Shown here piece after piece: positions 27,187-59,261 of a DNA stretch of 64,000 bases. The notes beneath the pieces are model-generated. The model saw only the letters and a program-made list of their open reading frames with translations, searched no databases and was not told the DNA's origin. The position numbers were made by a program, and so were the translations under genes. Within the stretch, counting starts at the first letter, position 1. Every line of letters starts with the position of its first letter. The stretch is from positions 3,649-67,648 of the forward strand of contig DATIWU010000089.1 in assembly GCA_035519195.1 (NCBI GenBank). The letters are read 5' to 3'. This stretch comes from Gemmatimonadales bacterium (GTDB lineage: Bacteria > Gemmatimonadota > Gemmatimonadetes > Gemmatimonadales > GWC2-71-9).

Positions 27187-29027
27187 CTCATCTCCCGGCC
27201 TCCTTCAAGCGCTTCACGGATTTCGCCGGCGGCCGCGATCGCGTGATCGACGTCGCGCGATAGTGCGCGGGCCTGCGCGGTCGCATGCGTGAGATCTCCC
27301 AGCACCGCATCCACACCCGCGGACCGTAACCGCAGCAGGTCGAATCGAACGTTTTGCATCGCCAAGCCGCACGATTCGAGCTGCTCCTCGACCTGTCGCC
27401 GGCGCGTGATGAGGTCCACGAGCGCCTGCCGCTGCCGGCGCAGCAGCTCGAGCTGGCGCGCGACCTCCGGCTCGGATGACTGGCGCTCGGCCGCGGCGAT
27501 CTTTTCATCGAGCCGCGCCACGGCGCCTGCTTCAACTCCGGTCCCCATAGTGTGCAGCACACGCGCGAGCTCTTCCGCCCGTTTGGCCAGCGCTTGGATC
27601 GTCGCATCGATGTCGGGAAGCATCCGCCGCTCCGAGGGCGGCAGGGCGTCCACGATACGACGGATGGCGGTGCGGTCGCGGCGCACCTGCTCGATAATGT
27701 CCGCGTGAACACCAAATTCGTCTGTCGTCGCTTGCGGGAGTGCTCCGGGTGGCGAGCCCCGCGGCTGAATCGCGTCGGCTGCCGGAGGACGCGCCAGAAC
27801 GTCTCTCCAGGAGTACCCGGCGTGCCATAACCGGACATAGCGGGGCACGAGCGAGAACGCCGCCAGCGCGCCCGAAACGGTCAGGAGCGCGCCGTGCATG
27901 TGGCTGCCGGTGACGAGATCAAACACGAGAAGCCCGCCCGTGATCGAAGCCCAGCGGACGAAGCTCGCGCGGGTTTCGCGCACCGCCCGCGGTTCGCCGG
28001 ACGTGTCCTGCAGACTCGCTCCGGTTTCGTCGCGTGCCCGGTTCCGCTCCCTGCGCCGCGGCCCCCGCCCCCGGGTACGGGGACGCCGTTCGCCTGCCGC
28101 GACCGGACGAGGTGCCGGGGGAGGGGCGATCGCAGCGGCCCGTGACTGCGCCCGAGGCAGACTCGCACTTCGAGCTTCGAGCGCGCGCCGCAGCGCATCG
28201 GCGGTGGGCCAGCGGTCTTCCGGGTCTTTCTCGAGACAGCGCATGATGGCCGCTCCGAGATCCTCGGGGCAGTCCACCCGCTTGGTCGTGATGAGCGGGG
28301 CGGGCTCCATGATCTGCTTCATGAGCACCCCGGGCACGGTTGGCGCGCGAAACGGCAGCTCACCAACGATCGCCTGGTACGCGACAATCCCGAGACTGTA
28401 GACGTCGGAGCGACCGTCGATCTCGCGGTCGCCCGCTGCCTGCTCGGGGCTCATGTAATGCGGCGTGCCGATGGCCACGCCGGTCCCCGTGAGCGTCGCG
28501 CCGCCGGTGGTCGAAGAGAGCGCCTTCGCGATTCCGAAGTCCGTGACCACGACCCGGCCGCGGCTCCCCTCGAGCAAGATGTTGTCGGGTTTCACATCGC
28601 GATGGATAATGCCGACGCTGTGGGCCGCCGCGAGCGCGTCCGCTGTCTCGCCCATGACGCGACGAACTTCTTCGGGCGGCAGCCGCCCGCGCCGGCGCAA
28701 CTTCGCGGACAGCGGCTCGCCATCGATGTAGGCCATCACGAAGTAGACGAGTCCGTCCGGCGATTGGCCAACCGAGAAAATGGGAACGATGTGCGGGTGG
28801 GAAAGCCGGGCCGCGGTCTGCGCCTCGCGGAGAAACCGCGTGCGGATCTCTTCCCGAAATCCGAGCTCCGGTGGTAGTACCTTGATGGCGACGGTCCGCT
28901 TGAGCAGCTCGTCGCGCGCGCTATAGACGACGCCCATGCCACCGCGCCCGATTTCGTGGTCGACGGTGTATGCGGAACCGAGCGCTCGGGTGAGACGCTC
29001 GGAAAGCGCCTGATCCGCTTCGTTCAT
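27183..29027 (-). CDS. Ser/Thr protein kinase with Arg/Pro-rich linker, hydrophobic segment(s) and C-terminal helical domain
   Basis: Hanks kinase motifs are present: [31 protein letters not shown] and GTPHYMSPE. Confidence 0.9.
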
Positions 29028-43114: not shown

Positions 43115-45496
43115 TCAGTGCGGCCGCAAGCTATTGAAAAGCAGGGGATAGGTGGCGAGGCTCTGGCCGCGGTATTGCGGGCGAAAGGCAAACAGCACGA
43201 CGCGTCCTTTACCGAGCCGCGCCTCGACCAGGGCCCCGCGACCGGCGATCCGGTCCGGATGCAGGACCCATCCTGAGCGGAGCACCTTGTCCGCCTCCGT
43301 AGGGAAGCGCCCGATGATCGTAGTTGCACTGGAATCGAGCACGTCGAACGCCGGGCCGTTCTCGAACCAGGCGATGCTTTGTTCCGGCATCCCGCGCGCG
43401 ATCGCCTGGGTCGTATCCAGGACCAGCCGGAAGATCGAGCCCGGAGCATAAAATTCGTCGTCGGCCACGCCTTCCAGAACGTTCCGCACCGGCAGCAGGA
43501 GCTGGGAGACCAGAAACCGGCTGGCATCGTTCAGGCCAACCAGTGTCCCGCCATCCTCCACAAACTTTCGCAGCTCTTTCACGCCTTCCTGGCCGATCCC
43601 GCCGCCGAACGGCGGCGGATACACCCGCGCCGGCAACCCGTCCATGAGCTCGACGGGCGACTCGTCCGGAATGACGATCACGTCGAAGTTGTCGCGCAGG
43701 TTTCCCGCGCGGATCGTCGAATCGATGAGCGAGGCGTATGGAATCTTCCACTGATCGAAAACCCAGCGGGTCCATCCTTCGTCCATCGACACGGCGTAGG
43801 AGCGGTACACGGCGATTCGAGGGACCGGAGCGTCCGACCCAAACACTGGCGGGGGAGCGCGCGGGCGTTCCGGTGCGACTGGGGGAGAGAGCGGCACGCG
43901 CAACGACTCGGCCACGGAGATCGCGCTAATCCCGAACAACAAGGGCAGGGTGTGCGCCGTTACGTCGTAAGGCGGTTCCGGCGGGCCGCCGGGATAGAGG
44001 CGCAGGTCGGGATAGTGCTGCGTTTCGAGCAGCGTCTTGGCGAACGCGGCATAGGGTTGTCGCAATACGACGACATACGCGCCGGCGGCGATGTGCTGGC
44101 TTCCCAGAGTGAACGGCTCTTGCGCCGTTCGCACTTCGACCTGCCCGCGTTGCAGGATCGCGAGCAGGGTGGCGACCCCAAGGCTCTCCTGGCGCTGCCG
44201 CGGGATGACGTAGGCATACGGCCATCCCTTCCATCCATGGGCGGCCCGTGTCCCGATAACGAGGAAATTCGCGAGCCACTGGTCGCGGAATCGAGCCGCG
44301 TTGTCAAGCAGCGCGTATGCCGCAGAGGTCTGATAGCCGACGATGTCGCGAATTGTCCAACGGCCGCCCGGCCAGGGGGCCGTGAAATTCCACGACCGCG
44401 TACGGGCGTCGTACCCCCGTGCCCGGGCCTCGAGCTCCGCAAACGGAATGTCGACCGGCGTCGCGAGATTCGCGTTCGCCGCCTCGGCGAGAATCCGCAC
44501 CGCACCGTGGTAGTGCTCGTACGCCCGTGCGGGCGTCCAGGCGTCGTAGCTCGAGTTGATGGAGATGCCGGTCTTCCCCTGGCCCGCGAGCTCCCATGCC
44601 ATCGCGGTGCCGAGCGCATTAGCGCCGTCCACGAGCAGCGGGTCGACATTCGGATCGATGGGATCGAGGTACGGCGGCAGGAACAGCCGCGAGCCGTCCG
44701 CCGCCTGCTGATGCAGGTCCAGGACGATCTGCGGGTGCCAAACGTCGTATAGCGAGTCGACCGTGAGCTGAGTTTCGACCTGCGTGAATGCGTACCAGTC
44801 CCGATTGTTGTCGTGCCCTGCGTAGCGGTGATACAACTCGGGGGGATTCGTACCCTCGGCCACAGTACCCAACGTGCGATTGTACCAGCGGGATACGATC
44901 GTCACGCCATCAGGATTGAGCGACGGGACGAGCAGCAGTACGACGTTGTCCAGCATCGATCGAATCGCCACGCTCGTATCCGTCGCCAGTCGATAGGCAA
45001 TGGACACGGGCGTCAGGTGCCCACCGACTTCGGTGGAGTGCACTCCCGACGTCAGGAGCACGATCGTTCGGCCGTCTCGCAGCGCATTGCGCGACTCCGC
45101 CGGTGATCGGAATGTGCGCGGATCCGCCAGTCTCGCATTGAGCCGCCTCAACGAGTCGAGGCGTTTGAGATTCTGCGAACTGGAGATGACGAGCGCGATG
45201 AACGGCGCGCCTAACGTCGTGCGCCCCAGCTCGTGGTATTGGATCCGATCCGAGCCCTTGGCGAGCCCCTGGTAGAAACGGACGAGCGTAGGCCAGTCAG
45301 CGAGCTTGCGATCGTCACCCGGCTCAAAGCCGAGGATCGACCGAGGCGTGGGGATCGGCGGCCGCGCCGCGGGGACGCTATGGGCGGGCGCCGGTTTTCG
45401 TTTTGGTGGGGGCGGGCGATGCTGCGCCAGCGCCGGACTGGCGCAGGCACATGCGGCCGCAAGGAGCAGCCAAAATCGCTCGATCACGTTGACCAA
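43115..45496 (-). CDS. M14 family zinc carboxypeptidase (large, secreted)
   Basis: HxxE zinc motif SGVHSTEVGG, followed by NPDG and HDNNRDW. N-terminal signal peptide. TTG start 45496 (start uncertain). Confidence 0.75.
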   Translation of the reverse strand: MVNVIERFWLLLAAACACASPALAQHRPPPPKRKPAPAHSVPAARPPIPTPRSILGFEPGDDRKLADWPTLVRFYQGLAKGSDRIQYHELGRTTLGAPFIALVISSSQNLKRLDSLRRLNARLADPRTFRSPAESRNALRDGRTIVLLTSGVHSTEVGGHLTPVSIAYRLATDTSVAIRSMLDNVVLLLVPSLNPDGVTIVSRWYNRTLGTVAEGTNPPELYHRYAGHDNNRDWYAFTQVETQLTVDSLYDVWHPQIVLDLHQQAADGSRLFLPPYLDPIDPNVDPLLVDGANALGTAMAWELAGQGKTGISINSSYDAWTPARAYEHYHGAVRILAEAANANLATPVDIPFAELEARARGYDARTRSWNFTAPWPGGRWTIRDIVGYQTSAAYALLDNAARFRDQWLANFLVIGTRAAHGWKGWPYAYVIPRQRQESLGVATLLAILQRGQVEVRTAQEPFTLGSQHIAAGAYVVVLRQPYAAFAKTLLETQHYPDLRLYPGGPPEPPYDVTAHTLPLLFGISAISVAESLRVPLSPPVAPERPRAPPPVFGSDAPVPRIAVYRSYAVSMDEGWTRWVFDQWKIPYASLIDSTIRAGNLRDNFDVIVIPDESPVELMDGLPARVYPPPFGGGIGQEGVKELRKFVEDGGTLVGLNDASRFLVSQLLLPVRNVLEGVADDEFYAPGSIFRLVLDTTQAIARGMPEQSIAWFENGPAFDVLDSSATTIIGRFPTEADKVLRSGWVLHPDRIAGRGALVEARLGKGRVVLFAFRPQYRGQSLATYPLLFNSLRPH

Positions 45497-45501
45497 GATA
45501 A

Positions 45502-45530
45502 GGGGTCCGGTACCCGGGGGTCCGGACCCC
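45502..45530 (-). terminator. GC-rich hairpin GGGGTCCGG-N11-CCGGACCCC after the ompA-like gene (intrinsic terminator candidate)
   Basis: A perfect 9-bp stem that also contains the 14-bp palindrome GGGGTCCGGACCCC. On the minus strand it is followed by TTATCTT. Confidence 0.5.
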
Positions 45531-45551
45531 TGCGGGGCTCAAACGTCCCGT

Positions 45552-47078
45552 TCAGGAAAGCTTGTGCAGCTCGACTCGTCTATTCTGCGCCCGCCCCGCG
45601 GCGCTCACATTCCCGGCGATCGGATGAGCGGAGCCGTATCCGCGCGCCGTCATTCGAACGGGCACCACGCCTTTGCGCGCCAGATAGGCTCGCACCGCCG
45701 CGGCTCGCGCTTCCGAAAGCCTCAGGTTGGCGCCCATGGGGCCGGTGTTGTCGGTATACCCGGCGATTTCGATCCGGATTTCGGGATTCGCGACCAGTGA
45801 GCCGGCAACGAGGTCAAGCACGGCGTAGGAATCCCGGGTGAGCACAGATCTACCGGATTCGAAATTCACCCCGTGCAGGATGAGTGTCGGGCGCGCGGGA
45901 GCCATGGCGTGCCCAGGCTCCGCCGGCGCGGGCGGCTCCGGGTGGAACAACAACAAGCAACCGTTTGCGTCCACCGGTAACCCATGCGGCGTATTCGGAC
46001 ACTTGTCGACCGAATCAGGAACGCCGTCGCCGTCCGCATCCTCGTCCACCGGACAACCGCTCGCATCCACATGGACGCCCGCAGGAGTGGTCGGGCACTT
46101 GTCGATTCCGTCCGGAACGCCGTCGTGGTCGTGATCGATCGGACAGCCCATGGCATCCACGACCGCTCCACCCGGAGTGTCAGGGCACTTGTCCAGCCCA
46201 TCGGGAATGCCGTCGTGATCCAGGTCCGACGGGCATCCGTACGTATCGACCATCGCACCGGCTGGCGTATCGGGACAGTGATCGAGTCCATCCGGGACGC
46301 CATCGTGATCCGAATCGATCGCGCAACCGTGATCGTCGACGACCGCTCCGTGCGGAGTATTCGGACACGCATCCGGACCATCGGGGATTCCGTCTCCGTC
46401 CGCGTCGCTCACGACCGGCGTGGGTGGTGGCAACGGCGGCGGTCCCTGATGTGGCTGGGGATCGACAAGGAGCGGCGCCGCGGCTGCCACGGCAACGGGT
46501 GCGGGAGTCTGGGGTGCTGGCGACGGGGCGCGTTTGCCGTTGGGGGCGAAAATGGCGAGCCCCGCTGTGGCCACGACGTGCGTTACGGCCTTGGTGCTGA
46601 AGGACGACTTCGTCTCCGGCGTATAGATGGCTCGCCCCTCGAGCCGCAGCGCGACGCGATTCGTGAGGAAGAGCTTGTCGCCCACTCCTCCGTGGAATCC
46701 ACCGTCAGTAAACTGGTAGGGCGCCGTCTCGCCGAAATCGAGCCGGGAGTATCCGCCCACCACATAGAAAATGTTGCGTTGTGCGTTCAGGAGATTGAGG
46801 ACGAGGCTGCCGCCGCCGATCAGCGGCTCCATGGTGCCCGTCCCGGACCCGAGCGGGTAGTCGGGCTGAAGCAGGATGTCCAATTCCGCCCCGACGCGGG
46901 ACCCAAACAGGTACCCGAACCGGATGCCGCCTCCCCACTTGTTCACGAGATTGAACGACGCGTCGTACTTCGTGTACGCGCCGAACATATCGAACTCGTA
47001 TTCGCGGGTGTGCTGCGCCTTGAGCTGCGTAACCGTGCACAGCACGGCCAGCGCGAGCACTCTAAGTGCACGCATCAT
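45552..47078 (-). CDS. OmpA-family outer-membrane protein with five thrombospondin type-3 (Ca-binding) repeats
   Basis: Signal peptide and an N-terminal beta-barrel-like region, then 5x D.D.DG.PD..D.CP.TP repeats. The C-terminal OmpA/MotB peptidoglycan-binding domain carries NLRLSEARAAAV. Confidence 0.88.
   Translation of the reverse strand: MMRALRVLALAVLCTVTQLKAQHTREYEFDMFGAYTKYDASFNLVNKWGGGIRFGYLFGSRVGAELDILLQPDYPLGSGTGTMEPLIGGGSLVLNLLNAQRNIFYVVGGYSRLDFGETAPYQFTDGGFHGGVGDKLFLTNRVALRLEGRAIYTPETKSSFSTKAVTHVVATAGLAIFAPNGKRAPSPAPQTPAPVAVAAAAPLLVDPQPHQGPPPLPPPTPVVSDADGDGIPDGPDACPNTPHGAVVDDHGCAIDSDHDGVPDGLDHCPDTPAGAMVDTYGCPSDLDHDGIPDGLDKCPDTPGGAVVDAMGCPIDHDHDGVPDGIDKCPTTPAGVHVDASGCPVDEDADGDGVPDSVDKCPNTPHGLPVDANGCLLLFHPEPPAPAEPGHAMAPARPTLILHGVNFESGRSVLTRDSYAVLDLVAGSLVANPEIRIEIAGYTDNTGPMGANLRLSEARAAAVRAYLARKGVVPVRMTARGYGSAHPIAGNVSAAGRAQNRRVELHKLS
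45957..46406 (-). repeat. Five tandem ~90-bp coding repeats (TSP3-like) inside the ompA-like gene
   Basis: The protein repeats DSDHDGVPDGLDHCPDTPAGAMVDTYGCP, DLDHDGIPDGLDKCPDTPGGAVVDAMGCP and so on, and the DNA is visibly repetitive. Confidence 0.85.
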
Positions 47079-47102
47079 TTCTCCTCAGGGCGCAATCGGT
47101 TT

Positions 47103-49244
47103 TCAGGCTGACGCTGATACGTCCCGACCCCCGCGCAATTCGGCGACCGCGCGCGCGAGTTCCTGCGTTGCGAGAATGAACTCGGCTGCCGCATGCCGCA
47201 GCGCCTGGACCGCTTCGGTTTGCTGCGCCGCGCTCGCCGCGGAGGCGTCTGCTTCTCGGGCGGGCACCAGGGCGGCTTCCTTCTGTTGCTCGAGCGAAAC
47301 CGACAGGCGACCCGAAAGCTCCGCGATACCCTGAGCCAGCTCGGCCACCCGGCGCCCCGCGCGCCCGGAACCGGTGGCGGCCTCGGCGATGGCGTCCAGG
47401 TCCTTCACCCAGTTCGCCGAACCCTGCACGACCTGCACCAGGTCGACTCGCATTTGCTCGAGCACCTGCACGGCGCGTTCGAGGGCTCGCCGGGTCTCCT
47501 GCGCTGATTTGCCGATATTGCGAGCCTCCCGCCCGCTTTGCTCGGCAAGCTTGTGCACCTCTTCAGCCACCACGGCGAACCCCCGTCCGTGCACGCCCGC
47601 ACGGGCTGATTCGATCGTGGCATTCAGCGCCAGCAGGTTCGTCTGATTGGCGACGAACCCGATCGTCTCGGAAAACCGCTCGACCTGCTCCGCCACGTCG
47701 CGCAGCCGCCGTACTTCGGCCGCGCTCTCCTCCGCGGCCGCGCCGAGACTGACGAGCTGGCGCACGGCTTCCTGGGTCTCCACCCGCACCTTGGCGGCGG
47801 TTTCCTCCATGCGGGTCCCGGCATCCCGGGTCGCCCCGCCAGCAGCATTGACTTCCCCAGCACTTTCTTTCAGTGATCCAGCTTCCCGAAGTGCTGCGGA
47901 AAGCGATCCGGTAGAGTGGCTAGCCCCCTGCCGGGATCGTTGGGCGGCCATACCCCCTTGCTGGAGCATGACTTCGACGCGCTCGAGCGCCGCACCAAAC
48001 CGACTGCCCGCGCCCGTGCTGCGCTCGGCGGCCACGCCCAGGACACGCATTGATCCCTCGAATGCGATCAGCCGCGCGATCGGGCTGGCCAGCAGCTCCA
48101 GCATACGAGCATCGAGCTCTCCGTACGTCCCGGCGTCCGACCGCCGGACGCTCCACATGCCGACGAGCTGTCCGCCATGGAAAAGCGGCACCACGACTTC
48201 CACGCCGGGCTGCCCATCTTCACTGGCGTCCGAAGGCGCGGCACGCGACACGACCGGTTGATGCAGTCGTACCGCTTCCGCTCCGGCGCCCGTGGTTATA
48301 TCGAGATTCGCGTCTGTGAGGCCTGCTGTATGGGCGACTACCGCGATGCGATCGTCGTGAGGTTCGTAGCGGCCAATCGCCATTTCATCGCACGATAGGA
48401 ACCGACGGGCCAGGTCCTCGACCTGTGGAAAGCCCTCCGTCAGAGTGGGGGAGGCGCTGAGCGTTTCGTCGAAGGCGCGCGCCAGGTCCTGGACGAGCGA
48501 CCGCGCCGCTCCTCGGATCAGGAACAAGGCGACCGCGGTTGCGGCGATAAGCAGGGCCAGGGGAGCGAGAACAACCGGAAAGTCGAGTCTGGCGTGCACC
48601 AGCCAGAGCCAGGGCAGCGCCAGGAACGCCGCGACCCCGTTCACCACCGCGGCCCAGCGGGCACTGTCCCCCTTGCGCTTGATGCCGGGATCCACGGCCG
48701 CGAGCAACGCGGCAATCGCCGTGAAGATCGCGATCGTCCCCGTGAGCGCGAGCGTGTTGCTTGGTGAGAGCGCCCCCGCCCCGTTTTCTCCACCCCACCA
48801 CTCATAACAAGCTCCGGCGAGCCCAACGCCGATCGTAAACCTCGACACATCCATCCCTGCCGCCCGCCAACCGCTTTTCCGCAATCCCAGATCCGTCAAC
48901 CCGGCCCCGAGTGCTCCTACGAACGCGGCGATGGGCCACCCCAGCTCGAACAATCCCAGTAAAGCCACTCCTCCAAGAAACGAGAGGTATTCCCCGCCTG
49001 GGAGCGCCACACCGGCGCGATGGATAAGGGCTCCGACGAACACAAGTCCGAGCATTTCTTCCAGAGCGACGAATGGGGTCTCGCTGGAAACGAGCATGAC
49101 GGCGGCAACGATCAGAATGCCGATCGCGGCCGCCGTGCTTACGGTCCGAACGGCGGTGGCGACCCGGTGGGACGGGGAAGATGCGGTTGAGCTTGGAGGG
49201 TGTTGGATGCGCCGCAAAGTTGGAGATGTGGCGCGGTGTGTCAA
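47103..49244 (-). CDS. Methyl-accepting chemotaxis-type sensor with polytopic membrane N-terminus and GAF-like domain
   Basis: The MCP signalling hairpin [31 protein letters not shown] is present, with multiple N-terminal hydrophobic helices. The start is uncertain (TTG 49244, TTG 49217 or later) because the first ~15 codons have low GC3. Confidence 0.8.
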
Positions 49245-49263
49245 GCTCAGCTATCCTAAGTAC

Positions 49264-49500
49264 ATGCGCGTGACCATAGAATATTGCGTCGTCTGAAATT
49301 ACGAACCACGAGCTGCCGGTCTGGCGGCCGAAATTCGCAAGGCCTTTCCGCAGGCCGAGGTGAAGCTGATCCAGTCCTCCGGGGGGGTGTTCGAGGTCGA
49401 AGTGGACGGCCGTAAGGTATTCTCCAAGCGCGCCTTGGGGCGCCATGCCCAGAGCGGTGAAGTGCTGAAAGCCATCGAGCGGCTTGAGCCAAACCGCTAG
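49264..49500 (+). CDS. SelW/SelT/Rdx-family thioredoxin-like protein with in-frame TGA (putative selenocysteine, CVVU) at 49294-49296
   Basis: MRVTIEYCVV-TGA-NYEPRAAGLAAEIRKAFPQAEVKLIQSSGGVFEVEVDGRKVFSKRALGRH... The frame continues to TAG 49498-49500. The family motifs IEYCxxC/U and GGxFEVxVDG are present. Confidence 0.7.
49309..49330 (+). promoter_or_regulatory. SECIS-like hairpin downstream of the in-frame TGA
   Basis: CG(A)GCUGCC-GGUCU-GGCGGCCG: 8 bp including one G.U pair and one bulged A. The apical loop is GGUCU. The stem begins 12 nt after the UGA. Confidence 0.55.
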
Positions 49501-49539
49501 CACCGCATTCGGGGGCCCCTGAAGCCTCCCCGACAAGAC

Positions 49540-52098
49540 GTGCACCTCTCTCGCGACCACTCTCTCCCGCCTGATCCACAAGCGTTTCTGGCCGCCGAGC
49601 CGCCGACCGGGCGTGTCGTCGTTATTGCCCCGACCCGCGCGGCGTGTGAGACGATCGAGCTCGCTCTCGGACTCCGCATCGAGACACTGCTGGCGCGTGA
49701 GCACGGCGCCGACATTCGCCGTCTCGCGCAGTCGGGGCGGGGGTTTGGGATCGTCGCCGGAACAGGAACAGGCAAGACGCTCGCGATCCGGTCGATGGCT
49801 GAAACCATCCTCGCCGCCAATCTGCGGGTGGGGGTCGTGAACCGGGAACGCGAGGCAACGCCGGAGACGCCGACCTGGAACGTCGTGATCGTGACGACCG
49901 GGATCGCGCGCCGCTGGTTCGAGGATGGCCTGATTACCGCGCGCGACACGCTGGTGGTGGACGAGATCCACCAGACGTCAGCCGAGCTGGAGCTGTGTCT
50001 TGCTCTCGGGAAGCGAGCCCGGTGTCGCTTCATCTGGTTGTCCGCTACGGTCGACCCTCGGTTCTATGCGGCGTATCTGAACTCCGCGGAGGTCCTCGAG
50101 ACCCGCGCCTTCGATCCGGCGAAGGCCGCGGAGGTACGGGTGCTCCCGGTGCGGCCGCTCGATTTCCTCGACGAGCGCTTCATTCGCCGCGTAATCAGAG
50201 AACGTCGCGGTGTGGCCGTATTCGTCCCAACCCGGGCCGAGGTGGAGCAAATCGCGGGAGAGTTGGGTGACCGCTGGCAGGCCTTGTCGACGGCCTTCTA
50301 CCACGGTGGCGAGCCGATCCGAGTCATTCGGCCGTTCCTCGATGGCTCGGTAGCGCGACCGTTTCTCCTCGCGATGACGGCGGCGGGCCAATCCGCGCTC
50401 AACATCCATGGCCTGGATACGGTCGTCATCTACGATGCGCGGTACACCAACGTCGTGGAGCGGGGCAGGAACGTTCTCACGCGCCTGTACCTCGGGTCGA
50501 ACGAAATCCTTCAAATGGCCGGTCGGGTTCACGGGCGCGTGGCGAGCGGCCAGGTCTTCATCCTGACGGATCGGGACTTGGTCTTCGATGAGCTTCGCCC
50601 CGCTCCTCCCGAATTCCAACTCGCGGGTGATGCGGAGCGCGTGGCGATCACCTGCGCGGCACTAGGGGTGGACGCTCAGGATCTCGACCTGCCGGTCCCG
50701 CTCGATCGCAGGGCATACCGGGATGCGGTCACCCTGCTCTCCGAGCGCGGGCTGGTCGAGCACGGACACCTCACTGCGTACGGGCGTGAAGTAGAAGCGA
50801 TGCCGGTCGAGCGCCCCTTCGGGGAGCTGCTCTACCATGCGGACGCTCAATTGTTGCCCGTTGTCGCCGTGTGTGCCAACATCGATTCGCTGCACCGGAT
50901 GACGCGCGACGAGCGGAATCTCGCCGGGCTCGTCGTATCTGGAAGCGACCATCTGACGAGCTACAACATTTATGCGGAGGCGGTGAACAAGCACGGATAC
51001 CTGGGCGAGGTGTACGGACTGCCCCGTCACCTCTTCCACGATACGATCGACCGCTGGGCGGAGGGGCGCGGCGTGTTGGTGAAGGTGATCGAGGACGTGG
51101 CCCTGGGAATGGCTTCCGTGTATCGCCAACTGGAACAGCCGCTGCCGGAACGGCTGCCCTACGCGGAGCAGGCGCTGCTCGCCCGTTTCGCCGATCTCCT
51201 GGCGCGCATCATGCCACTCGATCTCGTCATCGACGAACAAACGGCGGACGGGCGCGAAGCCCGCGTGAGCCGCGGGTCGGTGAGCGGCAGCTGGGGTGCC
51301 GTCGCGGGTGCGCTGCGGTACTTCGCGGATCGGTTTGGCGTGCCGCGGGCGAGCATTGAAGGGACGCAGATCCCTGAGCGTCTCATTCGACACTACGCCC
51401 AGCGCGCGGCGCCGGACGTGAAGTTTGAACGCAACCGCCGTCACGCAGGACTCGTCGTGGTTCGTGCGGTCAGATACTTCGGCTTCCTGCTGGACCACGA
51501 AGCCGAGCCGCTACCGGACCCTTTCCCACCGGAGCTTGCCGCGGCGGCGCGGCGGGCGCTCGTGAATGCGGTCATCGCGGGAGCGACCCCTCACCCCGAC
51601 CAGTCACGCGTGAAGCGCACGCTCGATCGAATAGAGTTCTACTGGCGCCGTTCGGGCGGCCGGCTTGCCAACCTCGCGCCCGACCAGATCAGCGCGCTGC
51701 TCCTGCTCCAGCTCGAGCAGGTGCGCTCCTGGGACGAGTTTCTTGAGACACGACTCACGCTCGATATCGATGCCCTGCTGCCCGGCCCGGCGCGGGCTGA
51801 TCTGGACCGGCTGCCAGCGTCGATTCACCTGCATGGTGACCGGATTCCGCTCGAATACGGTGTAGAACCAGCTGGCGGGGTCGTGCGATTACGGCTCAAG
51901 GAGGGGCAGGCGAGACGCTTGCGTGCAACGGACTTGCCGGCGTTTGACAGGCCTGTTCGCTTCACGGTCTTACGGGGTAAGCGCGAAACGGTGCGGGCCG
52001 AGACCCTGGCCGACCTGGAGCGACAGTTGCGGGGCCTCCCGAAGGGCGATCGCCAGCGTCTGGCCCGCGGCGGACGCCGGCGGCGACGCCACCGGTAG
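49540..52098 (+). CDS. DEAH/RHA-family ATP-dependent helicase (HrpA/HrpB-like)
   Basis: Motif I GTGTGKT, motif II VVDEIHQ, motif III LSAT and the HA2-like SDHLTSYNIY are present, with a long C-terminal extension ending in an Arg-rich tail. GTG start. Confidence 0.85.
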   Translation: MHLSRDHSLPPDPQAFLAAEPPTGRVVVIAPTRAACETIELALGLRIETLLAREHGADIRRLAQSGRGFGIVAGTGTGKTLAIRSMAETILAANLRVGVVNREREATPETPTWNVVIVTTGIARRWFEDGLITARDTLVVDEIHQTSAELELCLALGKRARCRFIWLSATVDPRFYAAYLNSAEVLETRAFDPAKAAEVRVLPVRPLDFLDERFIRRVIRERRGVAVFVPTRAEVEQIAGELGDRWQALSTAFYHGGEPIRVIRPFLDGSVARPFLLAMTAAGQSALNIHGLDTVVIYDARYTNVVERGRNVLTRLYLGSNEILQMAGRVHGRVASGQVFILTDRDLVFDELRPAPPEFQLAGDAERVAITCAALGVDAQDLDLPVPLDRRAYRDAVTLLSERGLVEHGHLTAYGREVEAMPVERPFGELLYHADAQLLPVVAVCANIDSLHRMTRDERNLAGLVVSGSDHLTSYNIYAEAVNKHGYLGEVYGLPRHLFHDTIDRWAEGRGVLVKVIEDVALGMASVYRQLEQPLPERLPYAEQALLARFADLLARIMPLDLVIDEQTADGREARVSRGSVSGSWGAVAGALRYFADRFGVPRASIEGTQIPERLIRHYAQRAAPDVKFERNRRHAGLVVVRAVRYFGFLLDHEAEPLPDPFPPELAAAARRALVNAVIAGATPHPDQSRVKRTLDRIEFYWRRSGGRLANLAPDQISALLLLQLEQVRSWDEFLETRLTLDIDALLPGPARADLDRLPASIHLHGDRIPLEYGVEPAGGVVRLRLKEGQARRLRATDLPAFDRPVRFTVLRGKRETVRAETLADLERQLRGLPKGDRQRLARGGRRRRRHR

Positions 52099-52187
52099 AT
52101 GTGACCGGATTCCTTGCGCCGGGTCCTTTATTTATAGAGCCGGTTCGACTTGAAACCGGGCACCGCGTTTCACATCGAGCACCATAG

Positions 52188-52664
52188 ATGCGTATGACAA
52201 ATAAAGAAAAGACTCCGACTGTGCCAACTACTCTTTCGTTCACGCCACTCGGCCAGGCCCTGATGGAATCATTCAGTGATGGGGTGGCCGTCTTTGACCC
52301 CTACGGGCGCCTGCTCTACGCAAACGAGCACGCCCGGCGCATGGCTGGGATCGAGGCGGATTTCGCCAACCAGCGGGCCGATACCCTCCGGCCACGCTTG
52401 CTCGCCCTGGGGGGCCGCCCCTCGCCGCTCCGCTCCGGGGGGACGAGTCTCGGGGAGGCCGTGTTCCTGCCCCGGGGGGATCAGGCGCGGACGTTGGCCG
52501 ACCGAGAACGCCAGGCAATTGTCGAGACATTGCACGGCACGAGCGGGAAGCTCGCCGAAACGGCCCGGCGGCTGGGGATCAGCCGAACCACCCTGTGGAG
52601 GCGGCTCAAGGCGTATGGGCTGAAGCCCGAAAATGGTGGCAGCGGGGCGGCAGGCGGAAACTAG
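52188..52664 (+). CDS. Small PAS-like + Fis-type HTH (HTH_8) DNA-binding protein, no AAA+ domain
   Basis: The C-terminus ERQAIVETLHGTSGKLAETARRLGISRTTLWRRLKAYGL matches the NtrC/Fis HTH. The N-terminus DGVAVFDPYGRLLYANEHARRMAGI is PAS-like. The start could instead be ATG 52264. Confidence 0.7.
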   Translation: MRMTNKEKTPTVPTTLSFTPLGQALMESFSDGVAVFDPYGRLLYANEHARRMAGIEADFANQRADTLRPRLLALGGRPSPLRSGGTSLGEAVFLPRGDQARTLADRERQAIVETLHGTSGKLAETARRLGISRTTLWRRLKAYGLKPENGGSGAAGGN

Positions 52665-52743
52665 GATGGGGCGGGGCTGAAAAATCCTGGCGTCAGAGAC
52701 CACGCGATCCTAGCTTCTCCGGCTCCTGCTACCGGCGGGAGCG

Positions 52744-53205
52744 ATGGCCGCAAAGCCCTACATCATAGATGAGTACGTCCGCTGGTCCGATATCGACTTC
52801 GCGGGAATAATCTGCTACGGCGCGTACCTGCGTTTCTTCGAAATCGCGGAAACCGAGCTGTTCCGCGCCGCGGGACTCGCGTTTCGTAACGTCTTCGATC
52901 GCTACAACGTGTGGTTTCCCCGCGCGGCCATTCATAGTGAGTTCTACCGGCCGGCGCGACTGGACGACCGGCTTCGCGTCGCCGCATACGTGAGCCGCGT
53001 CGGCAAGAAATCCCTCACGCTGAATTTCGACGTCATCCGCGGCGACCCTGTGGGGCTTGGAGCAGCGGGCTATCAGGTGCTCGTTTGCGTCGAGCGGCCG
53101 ACCCTCCAGTCGCGGGTTATCCCGCCCGAAGTCGTGCGCGCACTCGTTCCCTTCACGCTTTCCGTCGATGATGCCCGGAGCCAATTGGGAGTGCCGAAAC
53201 CCTGA
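52744..53205 (+). CDS. Acyl-CoA thioesterase (4HBT/YbgC-like hotdog fold)
   Basis: YVRWSDIDFAGIICYGAYLRFFEIAETELFR is the typical hotdog thioesterase N-terminus with a catalytic Asp. Confidence 0.8.
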   Translation: MAAKPYIIDEYVRWSDIDFAGIICYGAYLRFFEIAETELFRAAGLAFRNVFDRYNVWFPRAAIHSEFYRPARLDDRLRVAAYVSRVGKKSLTLNFDVIRGDPVGLGAAGYQVLVCVERPTLQSRVIPPEVVRALVPFTLSVDDARSQLGVPKP

Positions 53206-53714
53206 AGCTCGCGTGTCTCGCGCTCGCGTGCCTCGTCGTCGGGCTGGCCTGCGCCCGGAGGCCGGGGGCCGCCCGCGCCAAAGCGGGGACGGTGTGGATC
53301 CAGCTGCACTGGCCGCCGCACGACAGCGCGGAGCTCGTTGTTCCCGCTTCGGCACATCCGTGTCGGCGCGCTCTTGGCCTCATGCTCGCCGGCGTGAACG
53401 GTGGCGACGGCGTGTTGATCTGGCTCCGGAACCCCGGCGCCGCGATTGCGGGCGAGTATCCGATCCTGGCGCGCGGAGACAGCACAACACCCCGCGGCGC
53501 CGCGATGTCGGTGCGCTTCATGGTGGGTGAAATCGCGCGTGGCTTCGGCGTGGACAGCGGGCTCGTGCAGATCACGACGGCTGGCGCGCGCATCAGCGCC
53601 ACGGTTCGGGGGAGCGGGGTCGACTACTCGGCCGGCCAGCGGGTGAGTCTCGCGGGATCCGTGGTATCGCTGCCGAGCTCAGGTGACAGCGTGAGTTGCA
53701 GGGTACAACTCTAG
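53202..53714 (+). CDS. Hypothetical exported/lipoprotein-like protein (start proposed at the CTG of a CTGA junction; the track start GTG 53292 would delete the signal peptide)
   Basis: The frame is open from 53172. (M)KLACLALACLVVGLACARRP... is a classical signal-peptide-like N-terminus. There is no ATG, GTG or TTG between 53172 and 53292. Confidence 0.55.
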   Translation: MKLACLALACLVVGLACARRPGAARAKAGTVWIQLHWPPHDSAELVVPASAHPCRRALGLMLAGVNGGDGVLIWLRNPGAAIAGEYPILARGDSTTPRGAAMSVRFMVGEIARGFGVDSGLVQITTAGARISATVRGSGVDYSAGQRVSLAGSVVSLPSSGDSVSCRVQL

Positions 53715-53726
53715 GAACCTGCTAGA

Positions 53727-54941
53727 TTGGACGACGTGGGACAGACCTATTTTCGCCGCGGATTCGGCCTCAAAGGGGCCATCGAAGGAGCCCTGGCGGC
53801 CGATTATCACAGCCGCCTCGTCGACGTTATTCGGAAACAGGACTATGCGCTCCGCACGGGCTCGCTCACCTTCCGCCTGGCGCGTGAGTTCGGCTTTTGC
53901 TATGGCGTCGACCGAGCGGTCGAGTACGCCTACGAGACGCGCACAAAATTTCCCGACCGGCGCATTTTCCTGGTCGGCGAAATCATCCACAACCCGCACG
54001 TGAACGCGAAGCTCCGTGACATGGGGGTCGCGTGCCTGCACCGCCCCGATGGTGGTGAGTTCGACTTCACCGGCGTCGGTTCCGAGGACGTGGTGATTCT
54101 CCCGGCGTTCGGAGTCACGGTCCGAGACTTCGAACGACTGCGAGCCATTGGATGTGTGCTCGTGGACACAACCTGTGGGTCGGTCCTGAACGTGTGGAAG
54201 CGTGTGGACAGCTATGCGAAGGACGGTTTCACCGCGCTGATCCATGGGAAGTACTACCACGAGGAGACCAAGGCGACGGCGAGCCAGGTGACGAAGTATG
54301 CTGGAGGTCGCTATCTCGTGGTTCGCGATGTCGGTGAAGCCGAGGAGGTGTGCCGCCATATCGAAGCCGGCGGCGACGACGCCGACCTGCTGCGTCGATT
54401 CGCCGGAAAGCTTTCCCCCGCGTTCGACCCGGCACGCGATCTCGTGCGCATCGGCGTGGCGAATCAGACGACGATGCTGTCCAATGAGTCACTCGCGATT
54501 GCCGCGCGGGTGCGCGAGAGCATGATGCGGCGGTACGGCGAATCCGCCCTGAACGAGCACTTCCGTAATTTCGACACGATCTGCTCGGCAACCCAGGACC
54601 GGCAGGACGCGGTGCTCGCGCTGATCGCGGACTCGCTCGATCTGATGGTGGTCATCGGCGGGTACAATTCGAGCAACACGACTCACCTTGCGGCGATCTG
54701 CCAGCAGCGCGTGCCGACGTTTCACATCGAAGATGCGACGTGCATCGACCCGGACACAGCCACGATCCGCTACCGGCCGGTCGGGTCGGGCCGGGAGGAG
54801 CGGCGGTCGGGCTGGATTCCGGACGGGCCGGTCTCGATCGGGCTTACGGCCGGCGCGTCGACGCCAAACAACAAGGTCGGCGAGACGATCGAACGGATCG
54901 TCGCCACGCGAGGCGAGTCGCTCGAGGGCGCCGTCGGTTAG
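53727..54941 (+). CDS. ispH: 4-hydroxy-3-methylbut-2-enyl diphosphate reductase (long form)
   Basis: The three Cys contexts FGFCYGVDRAV, VDTTCGSV and DTICSATQDRQ plus GGYNSSNTTHL are present. TTG start. Confidence 0.9.
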   Translation: MDDVGQTYFRRGFGLKGAIEGALAADYHSRLVDVIRKQDYALRTGSLTFRLAREFGFCYGVDRAVEYAYETRTKFPDRRIFLVGEIIHNPHVNAKLRDMGVACLHRPDGGEFDFTGVGSEDVVILPAFGVTVRDFERLRAIGCVLVDTTCGSVLNVWKRVDSYAKDGFTALIHGKYYHEETKATASQVTKYAGGRYLVVRDVGEAEEVCRHIEAGGDDADLLRRFAGKLSPAFDPARDLVRIGVANQTTMLSNESLAIAARVRESMMRRYGESALNEHFRNFDTICSATQDRQDAVLALIADSLDLMVVIGGYNSSNTTHLAAICQQRVPTFHIEDATCIDPDTATIRYRPVGSGREERRSGWIPDGPVSIGLTAGASTPNNKVGETIERIVATRGESLEGAVG

Positions 54942-54950
54942 ATTCCGTTC

Positions 54951-57900
54951 ATGTCACTGCCTGGCTTCCATCCCGCTGTTTCTCGCTGGTTCCTGAGTCG
55001 ATTCGCGGCACCCACTGAACCCCAGCGCCGTGCCTGGCCGCTTATCCAGGACGGTCGTCATGCGCTCATAGCCGCGCCCACGGGCTCCGGCAAAACGTTT
55101 GCGGCGTTCCTGTCCGCCATCGACGGTCTGCTGCGGCAGGGAGTCGATGGCACGTTGGCCGACGGAATCCAGGTGCTTTACGTCTCGCCGCTCAAGGCGC
55201 TCTCGAACGACGTGCGGAAGAATCTGGCGGAGCCGCTCGAGCAGATCCGGGCGCAGCTTCCCGAGCTTGGTCTGCCGGATGTGGAGATCCGAACGCTGGT
55301 GCGCACCGGCGACACGCCGGCCGCGGACCGGCAGGCGATGATCCGGCGTCCCCCGCATATCCTGGTCACGACGCCCGAGTCACTGTTTCTGATTCTCACC
55401 TCCGAGCGCGCCCGGGACATGTTGAAAAGCGTGCGTACGGTCATCGTGGATGAAATCCATGCCGTTGCGCGCGACAAGCGGGGCAGTCACCTGGCGCTCT
55501 CGCTCGAGCGGCTCGAGCACCTGGCCGGACGGCCACTGCAACGCATCGGTCTTTCGGCGACGCAAAAGCCGATCGAAGAGGTCGCCCGATTCCTTACGGG
55601 CGGCGCCGTGTGTCCCATCGTCGACTCCGGGCATGCGCGGCGGCTCGATCTCGCGATCGAGATCCCCTCGTCCCCCCTCGAGGCTGTCATGGCGGCCGAG
55701 GTCTGGGAGGAGATCTACGAGCGGCTTGCCCAACTCGTCTCCGAGCATCGGACTACGCTGGTGTTTGTCAACACGCGCCGTATGGCCGAGCGGGTCACGA
55801 TGCACTTGTCGGAGCGGCTCGGCGCCGATGCCGTCACGTCCCACCATGGGAGTCTGTCGCGAGAAAAGCGGCTCGATGCGGAAACCCGGTTGAAGGAAGG
55901 CAAGCTCCGGGCCCTGGTGGCGACCGCGTCCCTCGAGCTCGGCATCGATATCGGGTCGATCGATCTCGTTTGCCAGATCGGGTCGACGCGCGCCATCGCG
56001 ACCCTGCTGCAGCGCGTGGGGCGCTCCGGGCACAATCTCGACGCGGTGCCCAGGGGCCGGCTGTTCCCGCTCTCGCGCGACGAGCTCATCGAGTGCGCGG
56101 CTCTCGTCCGCGCGGCGAAGGAAGGCGCGCTGGATCGGCTCATCATCCCCGATCGCCCGCTCGATATCCTGGCGCAACAGGTCGTGGCGGCGGCGGCCAC
56201 CGACGAGTGGGACGAGGAAACGCTGTTCGCTCTCGTGCGCCGCGCGTATCCGTACCGCAATCTGACCCGGCAGGATTTCGACGACGTCGTGCAGATGCTC
56301 GCGAACGGATTCACGACGCGCCGCGGCCGGCGGGGCGCCTATCTCCACTATGATGGCGTGAACCGGCGTCTTCGCGGCCGGCGCGGCGCGCGCCTCGCCG
56401 CGATCACGTCAGGTGGCGCCATACCGGATGTCGGAGACTACCGGGTCATCCTCGAGCCGACCGACACATTCGTCGGAACCCTGAACGAAGACTTCGCCAT
56501 CGAGAGCGTGCCGGGCGACATCTTCCAGCTCGGCAACAGCTCGTATCTGATCCGCAAGATCGAATCGGGCCAGGTCCGCGTTGCCGACGCGCAGGGACAG
56601 CCGCCCTCCATCCCCTTCTGGATCGGCGAGGCGCCCGCACGAACCGAGGAATTGTCCCGCGAAGTTTCGCGGCTGCGGGCAGAGATCGGTGAGCGCCTCG
56701 CGGCACCCTCGGAAGCGGTCACCTGGCTCGAGCAATCCGTCGGCCTCGCCGAGCCCGCGGCGCGGCAGATCGTGGAGTATCTGGACGCAAGCCGCAAGAT
56801 CCTGGGCGTCATACCGACGCAGCAGACGCTCGTACTCGAGCGGTTCTTCGACGAAGCGGGCGGCATGCAGCTCGTGCTGCACGCCCCCTTCGGCAGCCGG
56901 GTCAACCGCGCATGGGGGCTCGCGCTGCGGAAGCGCTTCTGCCGCACCTTCAATTTCGAGCTGCAGGCCGCAGCCACCGAGGACGCGATCGTACTCTCAC
57001 TCGGGCCGCAGCACAGCTTCCCGCTCGAGGATGTCTTCCAGTATCTCAAGCCGGACACCGCCGAGCAGCTCCTTGTGCAGGCGATGCTGGTGGCGCCGAT
57101 GTTCGGCACCCGCTGGCGCTGGAACGCCACCCGCGCGCTCGCGGTGCTGCGCTCGCGCGCCGGCCGGAAAGTCCCGACGCCGCTGCAGCGCATGGAGGCC
57201 GAAGATCTCGTCGCCGCCGTGTTCCCAGATCAGCTCGCCTGCCCTGAGAACCTCGTGGGCGACCGCGATATTCCGGATCATCCCCTCGTCAAGCAAACGA
57301 TCGAGGACTGCCTCACGGAAGCGATGGACTTTCCCGCGCTGCGCCGCGTGCTCGAGGCGATGCAGCGCGGAGAGTTTCAGCTGGTTGCCCGCGATACACC
57401 GGAGCCTTCACCGCTCTCCCATGAAGTCCTGAACGCGAAGCCCTACGCGTTCCTCGACGACGCGCCGCTCGAAGAGCGGCGCACCCAGGCGGTCCTGACG
57501 AGACGCGGGCTCGACATCAAGGCGGCCGACGAGTTCGGACGTCTCGACGCCGCGGCCATCGGGCGCGTACGAGACGAAGCCTGGCCCGAGCCCCGTGACG
57601 CGGACGAGCTGCATGACGCGCTGCTCACGATCGGAGCCGTAACCGAAGAGGAAGGGGGAAGGGGAAAGTGGGAAGGGTACTTCGCCGAGCTGATTGCCGC
57701 CGGTCGCGCCACGGTTTTCCGGGGTGATGCCCCGCTGTGGGTGGCCGCGGAGCGAGTGCCGATGGTCGAAGCGATTTTCCCCGGGAAGACGGTTCAACCA
57801 GCGGTCGACGTGCCGGAGCGCGAGCGGGCGAAGCCGTGGACGAGAGAAGATGCCATCAGAGAGCTCATACGCGGGCGCCTCGAAGTGGTGGGGCCTGCTA

Positions 57901-59261
57901 CCGCGGCCGGTCTCGCGACGTCGGTCGGCCTAACGCGGGACGATGTCGAGTTCGCCCTTGGGGCGCTCGAGCACGAGGGTTTCGTGTTACGGGGCAGGTG
58001 GAGCGCGGGCGAGCAGCAGCTCGAGTGGTGCGAGCGGCGCCTGCTGGCGCGGATCCACCGCTACACGCTGGACCGGCTCCGCAAGGAAATCGAGCCGGTC
58101 GCGCCGGCCGACTTCATGCGCTTCCTGTTCAAGTGGCAGCGCGTGACTCCGGACTCGCGCGCCGAAGGCCCCGATGGACTTGCCGCCGTGCTCGAGCTGC
58201 TCGATGGATTCGAAGCCCCAGCGGGAGCCTGGGAGCGCGACCTGCTTCCCGCGCGGGTGGGCGATTACGATCCCCTCTGGCTCGACGGATTGTGTCTCTC
58301 CGGTCAGATCGCCTGGGGTCGAATTGCGTTGCCCTCGAATCAGGCGACGAACGGCCATCGGTCGGGCCCCGTACGGACCACGCCGGTCGCGTTATTCCGG
58401 CGCGACCGGGGCGCCATCTGGAAGGCGCTCGCCCCGGGCGCGGAGCCAGCGTCACCCACGCTGTCGCACGCCGGCCGGTCGGTGCTCGAGGTACTCGACC
58501 AGCGCGGCGCGTCGTTCTTCGGCGACTTGGTGAATGCGACGGGCCTGCTGCGTACCGAAGTCGAGAAGGGACTGGCTGAGCTCGTCGCCTGGGGCGTGGT
58601 AACGTCCGATAGTTTCGCCGGTCTCCGCGCGCTCCTCGTCCCGTCCGACAGGCGCAAGCCGATCAGCACGTTACACCGCCGCGGGCCGAGCGCACCGTTC
58701 GGCGTCGAAACCGCGGGCCGGTGGTCTCGGGTGGAACGGCCCGGGTCCGTCTCGACGGACCAGGCCGCGGAAGCCGTCGCCCGCCAGCTGTTGCGCCGCT
58801 ACGGCGTCGTATTCCGTCGCCTGGTGACCCGGGAGTCGCTGCTCGTCCCGTGGCGCGATGTGCTGCGCGTGTATCGCCGACTCGAAGCACGCGGCGAGAT
58901 TCGCGGCGGCCGGTTCGTCGCAGGATTCTCCGGTGAGCAGTATGCGCTGCCCGAGGCGGTCGGATCACTCCGGGCGGTCAGGCGAGAGGAGCACGAGGGC
59001 GCCATGATTGCGGTGAGCGGGGCCGACCCCCTGAACCTGGTGGGCATCATCACCCCGGGCGAAACCTTACCGGCGCTCGCCGGGAACCGGCTGCTCTATC
59101 GCGACGGAGCACCGATCGCGATACGGGATGGCGAGGGACGCGCGGAAAAGTTTCTGGTCCCGATTGGCCATGATGAAGAAGCCGAAGTGAAGGCCGCCCT
59201 CGTTCGGCAGGGAGCGGTACCGCTCGTCAGGACGTATCTGGGGGCAACGCGCCGGCGCTAG
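54951..59261 (+). CDS. lhr: Lhr-family large ATP-dependent helicase (1436 aa)
   Basis: Motifs [16 protein letters not shown] and LSAT are present, with the winged-helix/Lhr core and a long C-terminal domain. Size and order are typical of Lhr. Confidence 0.9.

Follow-up and report, generated by a model that had tools for sequence, protein, structure and literature searches.

What does an in-frame TGA specify when it falls at the redox-active position of a small thioredoxin-like protein in a Gemmatimonadales genome? The question is raised by a stretch of 64,000 nucleotides from contig DATIWU010000089.1 of a Gemmatimonadales bacterium (assembly GCA_035519195.1; the whole stretch is referred to below as the window), in which a forward-strand reading frame beginning at 49264 meets a TGA at its eleventh codon (49294-49296) and stays open beyond it. 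An earlier note, made from the sequence alone, had read this frame as a probable gene of the SelW/Rdx family in which the TGA encodes selenocysteine (Sec, U), followed by a hairpin resembling a bacterial Sec insertion sequence (SECIS). The comparative analysis reported here supports the view that this is a true gene for a SelW-like CxxU selenoprotein, equipped with a bacterial SECIS that looks functional and is validated by evolutionary comparison, and on these sequence grounds we consider it very probable that the UGA is recoded to Sec in a 78-residue SelW-like protein. Our confidence stops short of full mostly because the Sec machinery in the window's genome rests on inference.

From 49264 onward the window reads ATG-CGC-GTG-ACC-ATA-GAA-TAT-TGC-GTC-GTC-TGA, and the peptide ahead of the TGA, M-R-V-T-I-E-Y-C-V-V, agrees to the base with the open reading frame (ORF) first described as ending at 49296. 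Translation of the same frame past the TGA adds 67 more codons (NYEPRAAGLAAEIRK...LEPNR) and ends at a TAG at 49498-49500 (+), which bears out the 78-codon product that had been proposed. The complete gene, with its predicted Sec at codon 11, accordingly occupies 49264-49500 on the forward strand (78 codons plus TAG). A listing of ORFs recovers it in fragments only, as one ORF that stops at the TGA and a second, of 46 amino acids (aa), that begins at an internal GTG. TGA is the commonest normal stop codon in the window, closing 8 of its 15 long ORFs, and therefore has not been reassigned genome-wide.

The family assignment was evaluated with the TGA read as Cys. Scored in this manner, the 78-aa product matches Pfam Rdx (PF10262) with E=7e-21 and 74.6 bits against a cutoff of 22.6, TIGR02174 with 63.4 bits against a cutoff of 34.2, and NCBIfam NF041051, "SelT/SelW/SelH family (seleno)protein", with 102.7 bits against an equivalog cutoff of 88; all three curated models are matched over essentially their full length. 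The putative CxxU redox motif is formed by C8-V-V-TGA11, in which Cys8 (TGC, 49285-49287, +) is an invariant Cys in all alignments and the TGA (49294-49296, +) aligns with the second Cys of Cys-form homologs, exactly the redox position to which the earlier note had assigned it. A family profile search also matches the solved SelW-related structures 3dex, 2fa8, 2oka, 2obk, 2ojl and 2p0g, as well as MIEN1 and mouse SelW. The fold was modelled with AlphaFold on the closest natural Cys form (P0002; 80% identical and of the same length). The model has a predicted local distance difference test score (pLDDT) of 92 and the topology beta1 / CxxC / alpha1 / beta2 / beta3 / beta4 / alpha2, with motif residues 8-11 placed between a strand at 2-8 and a helix at 14-27; Cys8 thus lies at the end of the first beta-strand. 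When the model was submitted to Foldseek, bacterial SelW-related structures ranked first (TM 0.85-0.90), followed by MIEN1 and SelW (0.68-0.76) and then by thioredoxins. As judged from this Cys homolog, a thioredoxin-like beta-alpha-beta-beta-beta-alpha fold is predicted for the window protein, and the SelW/Rdx assignment of the earlier note stands above curated thresholds as well as at the level of fold.

Whether the TGA is a fixed property of the gene or an accident of one genome was addressed by its orthologs. A scan that retained one genome per GTDB species yielded 80 loci, all of them from Gemmatimonadales or Gemmatimonadota metagenome-assembled genomes. The codon at the CxxU column is TGA in 79 of these 80 species representatives and TGC in the remaining one (L035). 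All 80 loci start at the same ATG (49264-49266, +, in the window), and the alignment proceeds ungapped and in frame to approximately codon 70, so that the frame is kept on both sides of the TGA. Colinearity with the nearest relative (L001) extends over 20 kb, with 83.8% of nucleotides identical, and the window therefore represents a related but different species. On both flanks of the TGA the amino acids are kept across the 80 species while four-fold sites carry 1-1.9 bits of synonymous variation, a pattern that is the signature of a single translated frame and points to purifying selection both before and after the TGA. As a side observation, synonymous variation is low at codons 9-10 (GTC GTC, 49288-49293), with 0.20 and 0.61 bits compared to about 1.3 elsewhere; this reduction may reflect an effect of sequence context on UGA decoding.

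A second ortholog set was obtained from a metagenome scan seeded on a distant low-GC clade. It comprises 80 loci, and in all 70 of those in which the motif could be located the column codon is again TGA. These data bear directly on the possibility that the locus is a chance ORF or a pseudogene, namely a decaying Cys-form gene with a nonsense mutation. A single sequence cannot exclude such a history, and the energy of the hairpin taken alone is unremarkable; nevertheless, the retention of TGA by 79 of 80 species and by all 70 metagenomic orthologs, together with purifying selection downstream of it, effectively refutes this explanation.

Natural variants at the column were also recovered. Cys forms carry TGT or TGC at this position and are read through as one 78-aa protein. 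Genuine codons for residues other than Cys are Leu CTG (P0015), Arg CGC (P0019) and Gly GGA (P0093). Apparent Trp forms were rejected: in database proteins that show W at the Sec column (P0001, P0005 and P0102) the codon is actually TGA translated under another genetic code, as it also is in the JGI proteins with W at this column. In the Leu (L084/L085), Arg (L086) and Gly (L095) forms, Sec has been replaced by a non-redox residue (CxxL, CxxR and CxxG, respectively). A single Cys is left in these variants, and therefore no intramolecular selenenylsulfide or disulfide can form.

Public annotation tells a different story about this locus. The window's own ENA contig (ERZ27256607, k141_2434677) carries no gene call in the 443-nt gap between the neighbouring genes (window 49098-49539), and a protein search returned two classes of match, one with a length of roughly 78 aa and the other consisting of 44-65 aa fragments that begin at internal starts. 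The GenBank and JGI entries for orthologs are fragments of 46-65 aa that start either at the hairpin-loop CTG (MAAEIRK...) or at a downstream GTG; L093 (1559-2000) and proteins P0022-P0034 are among the records in which the gene is either skipped or truncated. The anticipation of the earlier note that ORF callers would omit or truncate the gene was thus well founded. Taken at face value, the GenBank, JGI and ENA annotation of the orthologs (46-65 aa) agrees with an alternative in which the UGA terminates translation, the C-terminal fragment initiated at the downstream CTG or GTG is the functional product, and the hairpin serves as a structure for translational coupling or regulation. Such a fragment would be devoid of strand beta1 and of the entire CxxU motif of the Rdx fold. 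Moreover, the ten codons that precede the TGA begin with an invariant ATG and vary synonymously while their amino acids are kept, and the natural Cys forms are read as one 78-aa protein. We consider this alternative very improbable.

In the messenger RNA (mRNA), the minimum free energy (MFE) structure of the region contains a hairpin at 49309-49330 (+), 12 nt past the TGA, in which two base pairs, a bulged A49311 and six further base pairs support the loop GGUCU. Its parts are C49309-G49310, the A49311 bulge, GCUGCC at 49312-49317, the loop at 49318-49322 and the 3' arm GGCGGCCG at 49323-49330, in exact agreement with the position, spacing and loop given in the earlier note.

Selection on the hairpin was sought at synonymous sites in 80 distinct genes of the TGA form, which have a median identity of 0.59 at third positions. 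Only 6 of the 70 third codon positions are invariant: those of the ATG, of the TGA and of codons 18-21 (GCC-GGT-CTG-GCG). Codons 18-21 (49315-49326) span the hairpin from the final stem pair of its 5' arm through the loop to the 3' arm, and show zero synonymous variation in 79-80 TGA forms; the chance probability of a run of four invariant third positions is about 0.001 under random placement. Codon 19 is GGT in 79 of 79 genes, although at all other Gly positions of the gene this codon is in the minority.

Further evidence came from the distant metagenomic orthologs, in which a hairpin is found at the same offset from the UGA with widely different stem sequences (for example CUCGU/ACGAG, CUCUC/GAGAG, UUCUA/UAGAA, CGCGA/UCGCG, CACCA/UGGUG and GGUCA/UGACC) and a loop core G-[U/G]-N closed by A-U or G.U. 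Covariation was assessed on an ungapped alignment of 36 distinct sequences, with 500 shuffles and versions in which the 3' partner was slid by 1-3 columns as controls. Paired cells amounted to 88.3%, compared to 77.2 +/- 0.9% in the shuffles, none of which reached the observed value (0/500), and to 23-50% in the slid controls; the covariation score was 0.369, whereas no slid version exceeded 0.127. Two-sided compensatory changes number 6-7 in each of four stem pairs, with up to four pair types. The two lower pairs and the bulge occur in the GC-rich clade only, and the conserved element is therefore the 6-bp stem with a small G-U loop at 49313-49327 (+), whose arms lie at offsets 19-24 and 28-33 from the U of the UGA and which is defined by both the frozen codons and the covariation. 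Its cap, G-[U/G]-N at 49319-49321, is G-U-C in the window and is closed by a G.U pair. A predicted extension of the lower stem (49302-49305 / 49334-49337) was rejected, as an Ile codon within it varies between ATT and ATC without compensation. The hairpin is under selection at the RNA level; its conservation in Sec-form orthologs takes the form of frozen synonymous sites within the order and of compensatory changes across distant orthologs.

The hairpin also conforms to what is known of bacterial SECIS elements (bSECIS). According to a 2026 review (PMC13188914), the bSECIS model comprises an apical loop of 3-9 nt, an upper stem of 4-16 bp, a distance of 16-37 nt between UGA and loop and an MFE of at most -7.5 kcal/mol; the loop has a G in its first two positions and usually reads N-G-[G/U]-N-N, with the outer bases paired (PMC13188914). 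The window hairpin falls within all of these limits, having a 5-nt loop (GGUCU) with G at positions 1-2, a 6+2 bp stem, a distance of 21 nt and an MFE of -12.4 kcal/mol. The likeness to the E. coli fdhF apex that the earlier note had pointed out holds on the actual fdhF sequence, in which the UGA is codon 140 and GGUCUG begins at offset 21 from the U of the UGA, compared to offset 24 in the window. Both are coding-region hairpins at a similar distance from the UGA, both have a bulge in the 5' arm, and in both GGUCUG is read in frame within Ala-Gly-Leu. In contrast to fdhF, the upper stem in the window is longer and more GC-rich (6 + 2 bp versus 3 + 3) and lies one codon farther from the UGA. 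By analogy with this system, the window SECIS would presumably be bound by a Gemmatimonadales SelB.

The fate of the hairpin in genes that have lost the TGA provides a further view of its role. Among nine non-TGA loci, in which L084 and L085 (an identical Leu-form gene on two contigs) are counted separately, the GGT codon is lost in five (replaced by GGC, GCG, GCT or GGA), whereas every one of about 150 TGA forms has kept it. The Leu and Arg forms also have an altered 3' arm in the hairpin. Three Cys forms (L088, L090 and L091) and the Gly form (L095) retain an intact GCC-GGT-CTG-GCG hairpin. Because each of them is one base change from TGA, the simplest reading is that these four look like recent conversions from TGA that still carry a fossil SECIS.

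Several observations weigh against the interpretation of the UGA as a Sec codon served by this hairpin. The folding energy is not significant when compared with that of shuffled sequences (z=-0.9 over 52 nt, z=-1.7 over 27 nt, in DNA of 65% GC); the single-sequence fold is unremarkable, and therefore the hairpin is not established by the window sequence alone and becomes significant through the comparative evidence. Within Gemmatimonadales the stem shows one-sided changes only (U-G to C-G), with no two-sided compensation, and an A.C mismatch is present in the stem in 21 of 80 species. No Rfam family was found over the window at gathering thresholds; around the gene, the only match at E<=10 was a flavivirus frameshift element, which was dismissed as a chance hit. 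The four loci that keep the hairpin in the absence of a TGA (L088, L090, L091 and L095) make the link between hairpin and TGA statistical rather than absolute. Furthermore, selA, selB, selD and tRNA-Sec left no trace in the window and in the 10-kb flanks of the 80 Gemmatimonadales loci, to which the search was limited, and the main texts of the literature searched contain nothing on Sec decoding in Gemmatimonadota, Gemmatimonadetes or Gemmatimonas. In the individual searches, ARAGORN identified no tRNA in the 64-kb window, and tblastn with E. coli SelD, SelB, SelA and FdhF matched neither the window nor the 10-kb flanks in any of the 80 relatives. Likewise, the supplement of a 2016 ISME J survey held nothing relevant on the Sec trait in this phylum.

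When the machinery search was applied to all loci, the TGA-form SelW-like gene was found linked to sel genes in two lineages outside Gemmatimonadales. In the first (L136 1501-2077, L137 1501-3189 and L144 898-1269) the gene order is SelW-like / tRNA-Sec / selD / selA. The second lineage contains the order selB / SelW-like / selA in L108 (6-3231) and selD(-) / SelW-like / selA in L135 (305-3258), where selD has an in-frame TGA of its own (...KAG*GCK...) at the position equivalent to Cys17 of the E. coli protein (...GAGCGCK...). Of the 80 metagenomic loci, 5 thus show linkage to sel genes, compared to 0 of the 80 loci from Gemmatimonadales, and no description of an association between SelW-like genes and sel clusters was found in the literature searched. 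These arrangements show co-occurrence and linkage of the family's TGA forms with the Sec apparatus in those other lineages; they are no demonstration of the apparatus in the window's genome.

The same data set the terms for the alternative that competes most directly with Sec, in which the hairpin aids recoding of the UGA to another amino acid, either Cys delivered by a tRNA-Sec-like tRNA or Trp or Cys through near-cognate read-through. Sec-like tRNAs can carry Cys, and Cys, Leu, Arg and Gly are all tolerated at the column in some relatives; the failure to find Sec machinery in the window or in the 10-kb flanks of its relatives points in the same direction. However, the hairpin fits the SelB-type bSECIS model and has its G-U loop in common with E. 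coli fdhF, and TGA-form orthologs elsewhere adjoin tRNA-Sec, selD, selA and selB. If the product were Cys, TGC or TGT would be a simpler solution, yet TGA is kept in 79 of 80 species. Recoding to an amino acid other than Sec is, in our judgement, improbable.

Under the preferred interpretation, Sec at codon 11, the active site would be Cys8-Val-Val-Sec11 in a SelW-like thioredoxin-fold protein of the Rdx family. The mRNA immediately 3' of the UGA would fold into the bacterial SECIS hairpin, which, as in E. coli fdhF, would tether the complex of SelB, GTP and Sec-tRNA(Sec) to the ribosome as it reaches the UGA, and the UGA would be recoded to Sec. Once mature, the protein would alternate between a selenenylsulfide that joins Cys8 to Sec11 and the reduced selenol/thiol form, and would probably act as a small thiol-dependent oxidoreductase. 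Within this scheme we infer the presence of SelB and tRNA-Sec in this genome, the insertion of Sec, and the redox chemistry and substrate of the protein.

The selenoprotein family to which the window gene belongs has been known since 2005. Bacterial SelW-like selenoproteins of the CxxU type are well described and were catalogued first in the Sargasso Sea and Global Ocean Sampling (GOS) selenoproteomes (PMC1088965, PMC2398784, PMC1794560). They form the most abundant family of the Sargasso Sea selenoproteome, with few Cys homologs (PMC1088965, PMC1794560), and Sec forms far outnumber Cys forms there, at 48 to 7 (PMC1088965, PMC2398784, PMC1794560). The window gene resembles these genes in its Pfam/TIGRFAM family, its CxxU motif, a length of about 75-90 aa, a coding-region SECIS just past the UGA and an excess of Sec forms. 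It differs from them in its host, a soil Gemmatimonadales unmentioned in the selenium literature searched, and in a promoter geometry that suggests a leaderless mRNA. The protein scores above the cutoff of NF041051 ("SelTWH_Campy", an equivalog) over the full model length; this model is Campylobacter-based judging by its name, and functional equivalence across phyla is its assumption. At the structural level, 2FA8 (Agrobacterium Atu0228), 2OBK, 3DEX, 2OKA, 2OJL, 2P0G, mammalian SelW (2NPB) and MIEN1 (2LJK) have the same fold, with CxxC/U between beta1 and alpha1. The crystallised bacterial Rdx proteins are CxxC forms, as judged from alignments of two of them, whereas the window protein is a predicted Sec form. 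Mammalian SelW, for its part, has its SECIS in the 3' untranslated region, unlike the coding-region SECIS of the window gene.

Upstream of the gene, a strongly conserved element with promoter-like boxes was identified at 49214-49257 (+) across 80 species. In the window it contains GTGGCG (49228-49233), an 18-nt spacer and TATCCT (49252-49257), this last box being separated from the ATG by 6 nt. Of 79 species, 66 have a TAnnnT box that stops 6-7 nt short of the ATG; it reads TATCCT in the window and TATCGT in most relatives, and (G/T)TGGCG is placed 18 nt upstream of the box in relatives. In L003, L005, L010 and L019, an insertion of about 25 nt separates the box from the ATG (31-34 nt versus 6-7). 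The element occurs once per locus in the 80 species and is also present in Cys, Leu and Arg forms. A strict sigma-70 scan did not call these boxes, and no Shine-Dalgarno sequence is evident before the ATG. The geometry of the promoter boxes suggests a leaderless or nearly leaderless mRNA. N-terminal extensions of some database proteins ("...RKLGRVARGVKR...") are translations of this upstream element. Read on the minus strand, the TGTCAA of the element becomes TTGACA, which may serve the divergent neighbouring gene as a -35 box.

This neighbour, at 47103-49097 (-), encodes a signalling protein of the methyl-accepting chemotaxis protein (MCP) type with a GAF domain (Pfam MCPsignal, GAF_2); its start at 49097 was taken from the gene call on the window's own ENA contig. 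Downstream, a DEAD/DEAH-type helicase (Pfam DEAD) is encoded at 49540-52098 (+) and is possibly co-transcribed with the Rdx gene. The order of neighbours is kept in relatives (L083 and L084), and in L084 the helicase starts 3 nt after the Rdx stop. Synteny with a Cys-form relative extends over about 16 kb (window 43115-59261 and L083 3829-19620), in the order M14 carboxypeptidase, OmpA with thrombospondin type-3 repeats, GAF-MCP, Rdx, DEAD-like helicase, HTH_8 regulator, LytB/IspH and a large Lhr-type helicase. Elsewhere in the window, a scan for a second selenoprotein by in-frame TGA and third-position GC content (GC3) gave a single match at 27477 (+), which was rejected as it lies antisense to a Ser/Thr-kinase-like ORF (27183-29027, -). 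A scan for TGA followed by a GGU hairpin over 1.39 Mb returned off-frame noise only.

What is new here is new to a mild degree: the host lineage, the near-universality of the Sec form within it, its consistent mis-annotation, the leaderless geometry and the linkage of orthologs to sel genes elsewhere. Our understanding of how Sec decoding works is unchanged by these findings. Gemmatimonadales are abundant in soil, the literature searched contains no report of Sec use in them, and the gene is absent or 5'-truncated in public records; hundreds of Gemmatimonadales genomes are probably without a correct entry for a conserved redox protein. In addition, the approximately 150 TGA forms, whose SECIS keeps a constant position, and the natural Cys, Leu, Arg and Gly variants constitute a natural experiment on the evolution of the SECIS and on its decay after the loss of Sec.

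A more speculative proposal can be formulated, namely that the SelW-like protein is a near-universal and perhaps the principal selenoprotein of Gemmatimonadales and that the family serves the Sec pathway itself by handling selenium, instead of having a role in general redox defence. The second of these ideas is hinted at by the TGA-form orthologs that sit within sel clusters in at least two other lineages. We regard this as unlikely on present evidence, and it is weakened by the linkage being confined to 5 of 80 metagenomic and 0 of 80 Gemmatimonadales loci. If true, the selenium-handling idea would open a testable route to the function of SelW-type proteins, which has long been unknown. For the organisms themselves, the retention of TGA in 79 of 80 species implies that the full Sec machinery is maintained in a widespread soil order, which bears on the demand for selenium in soil.

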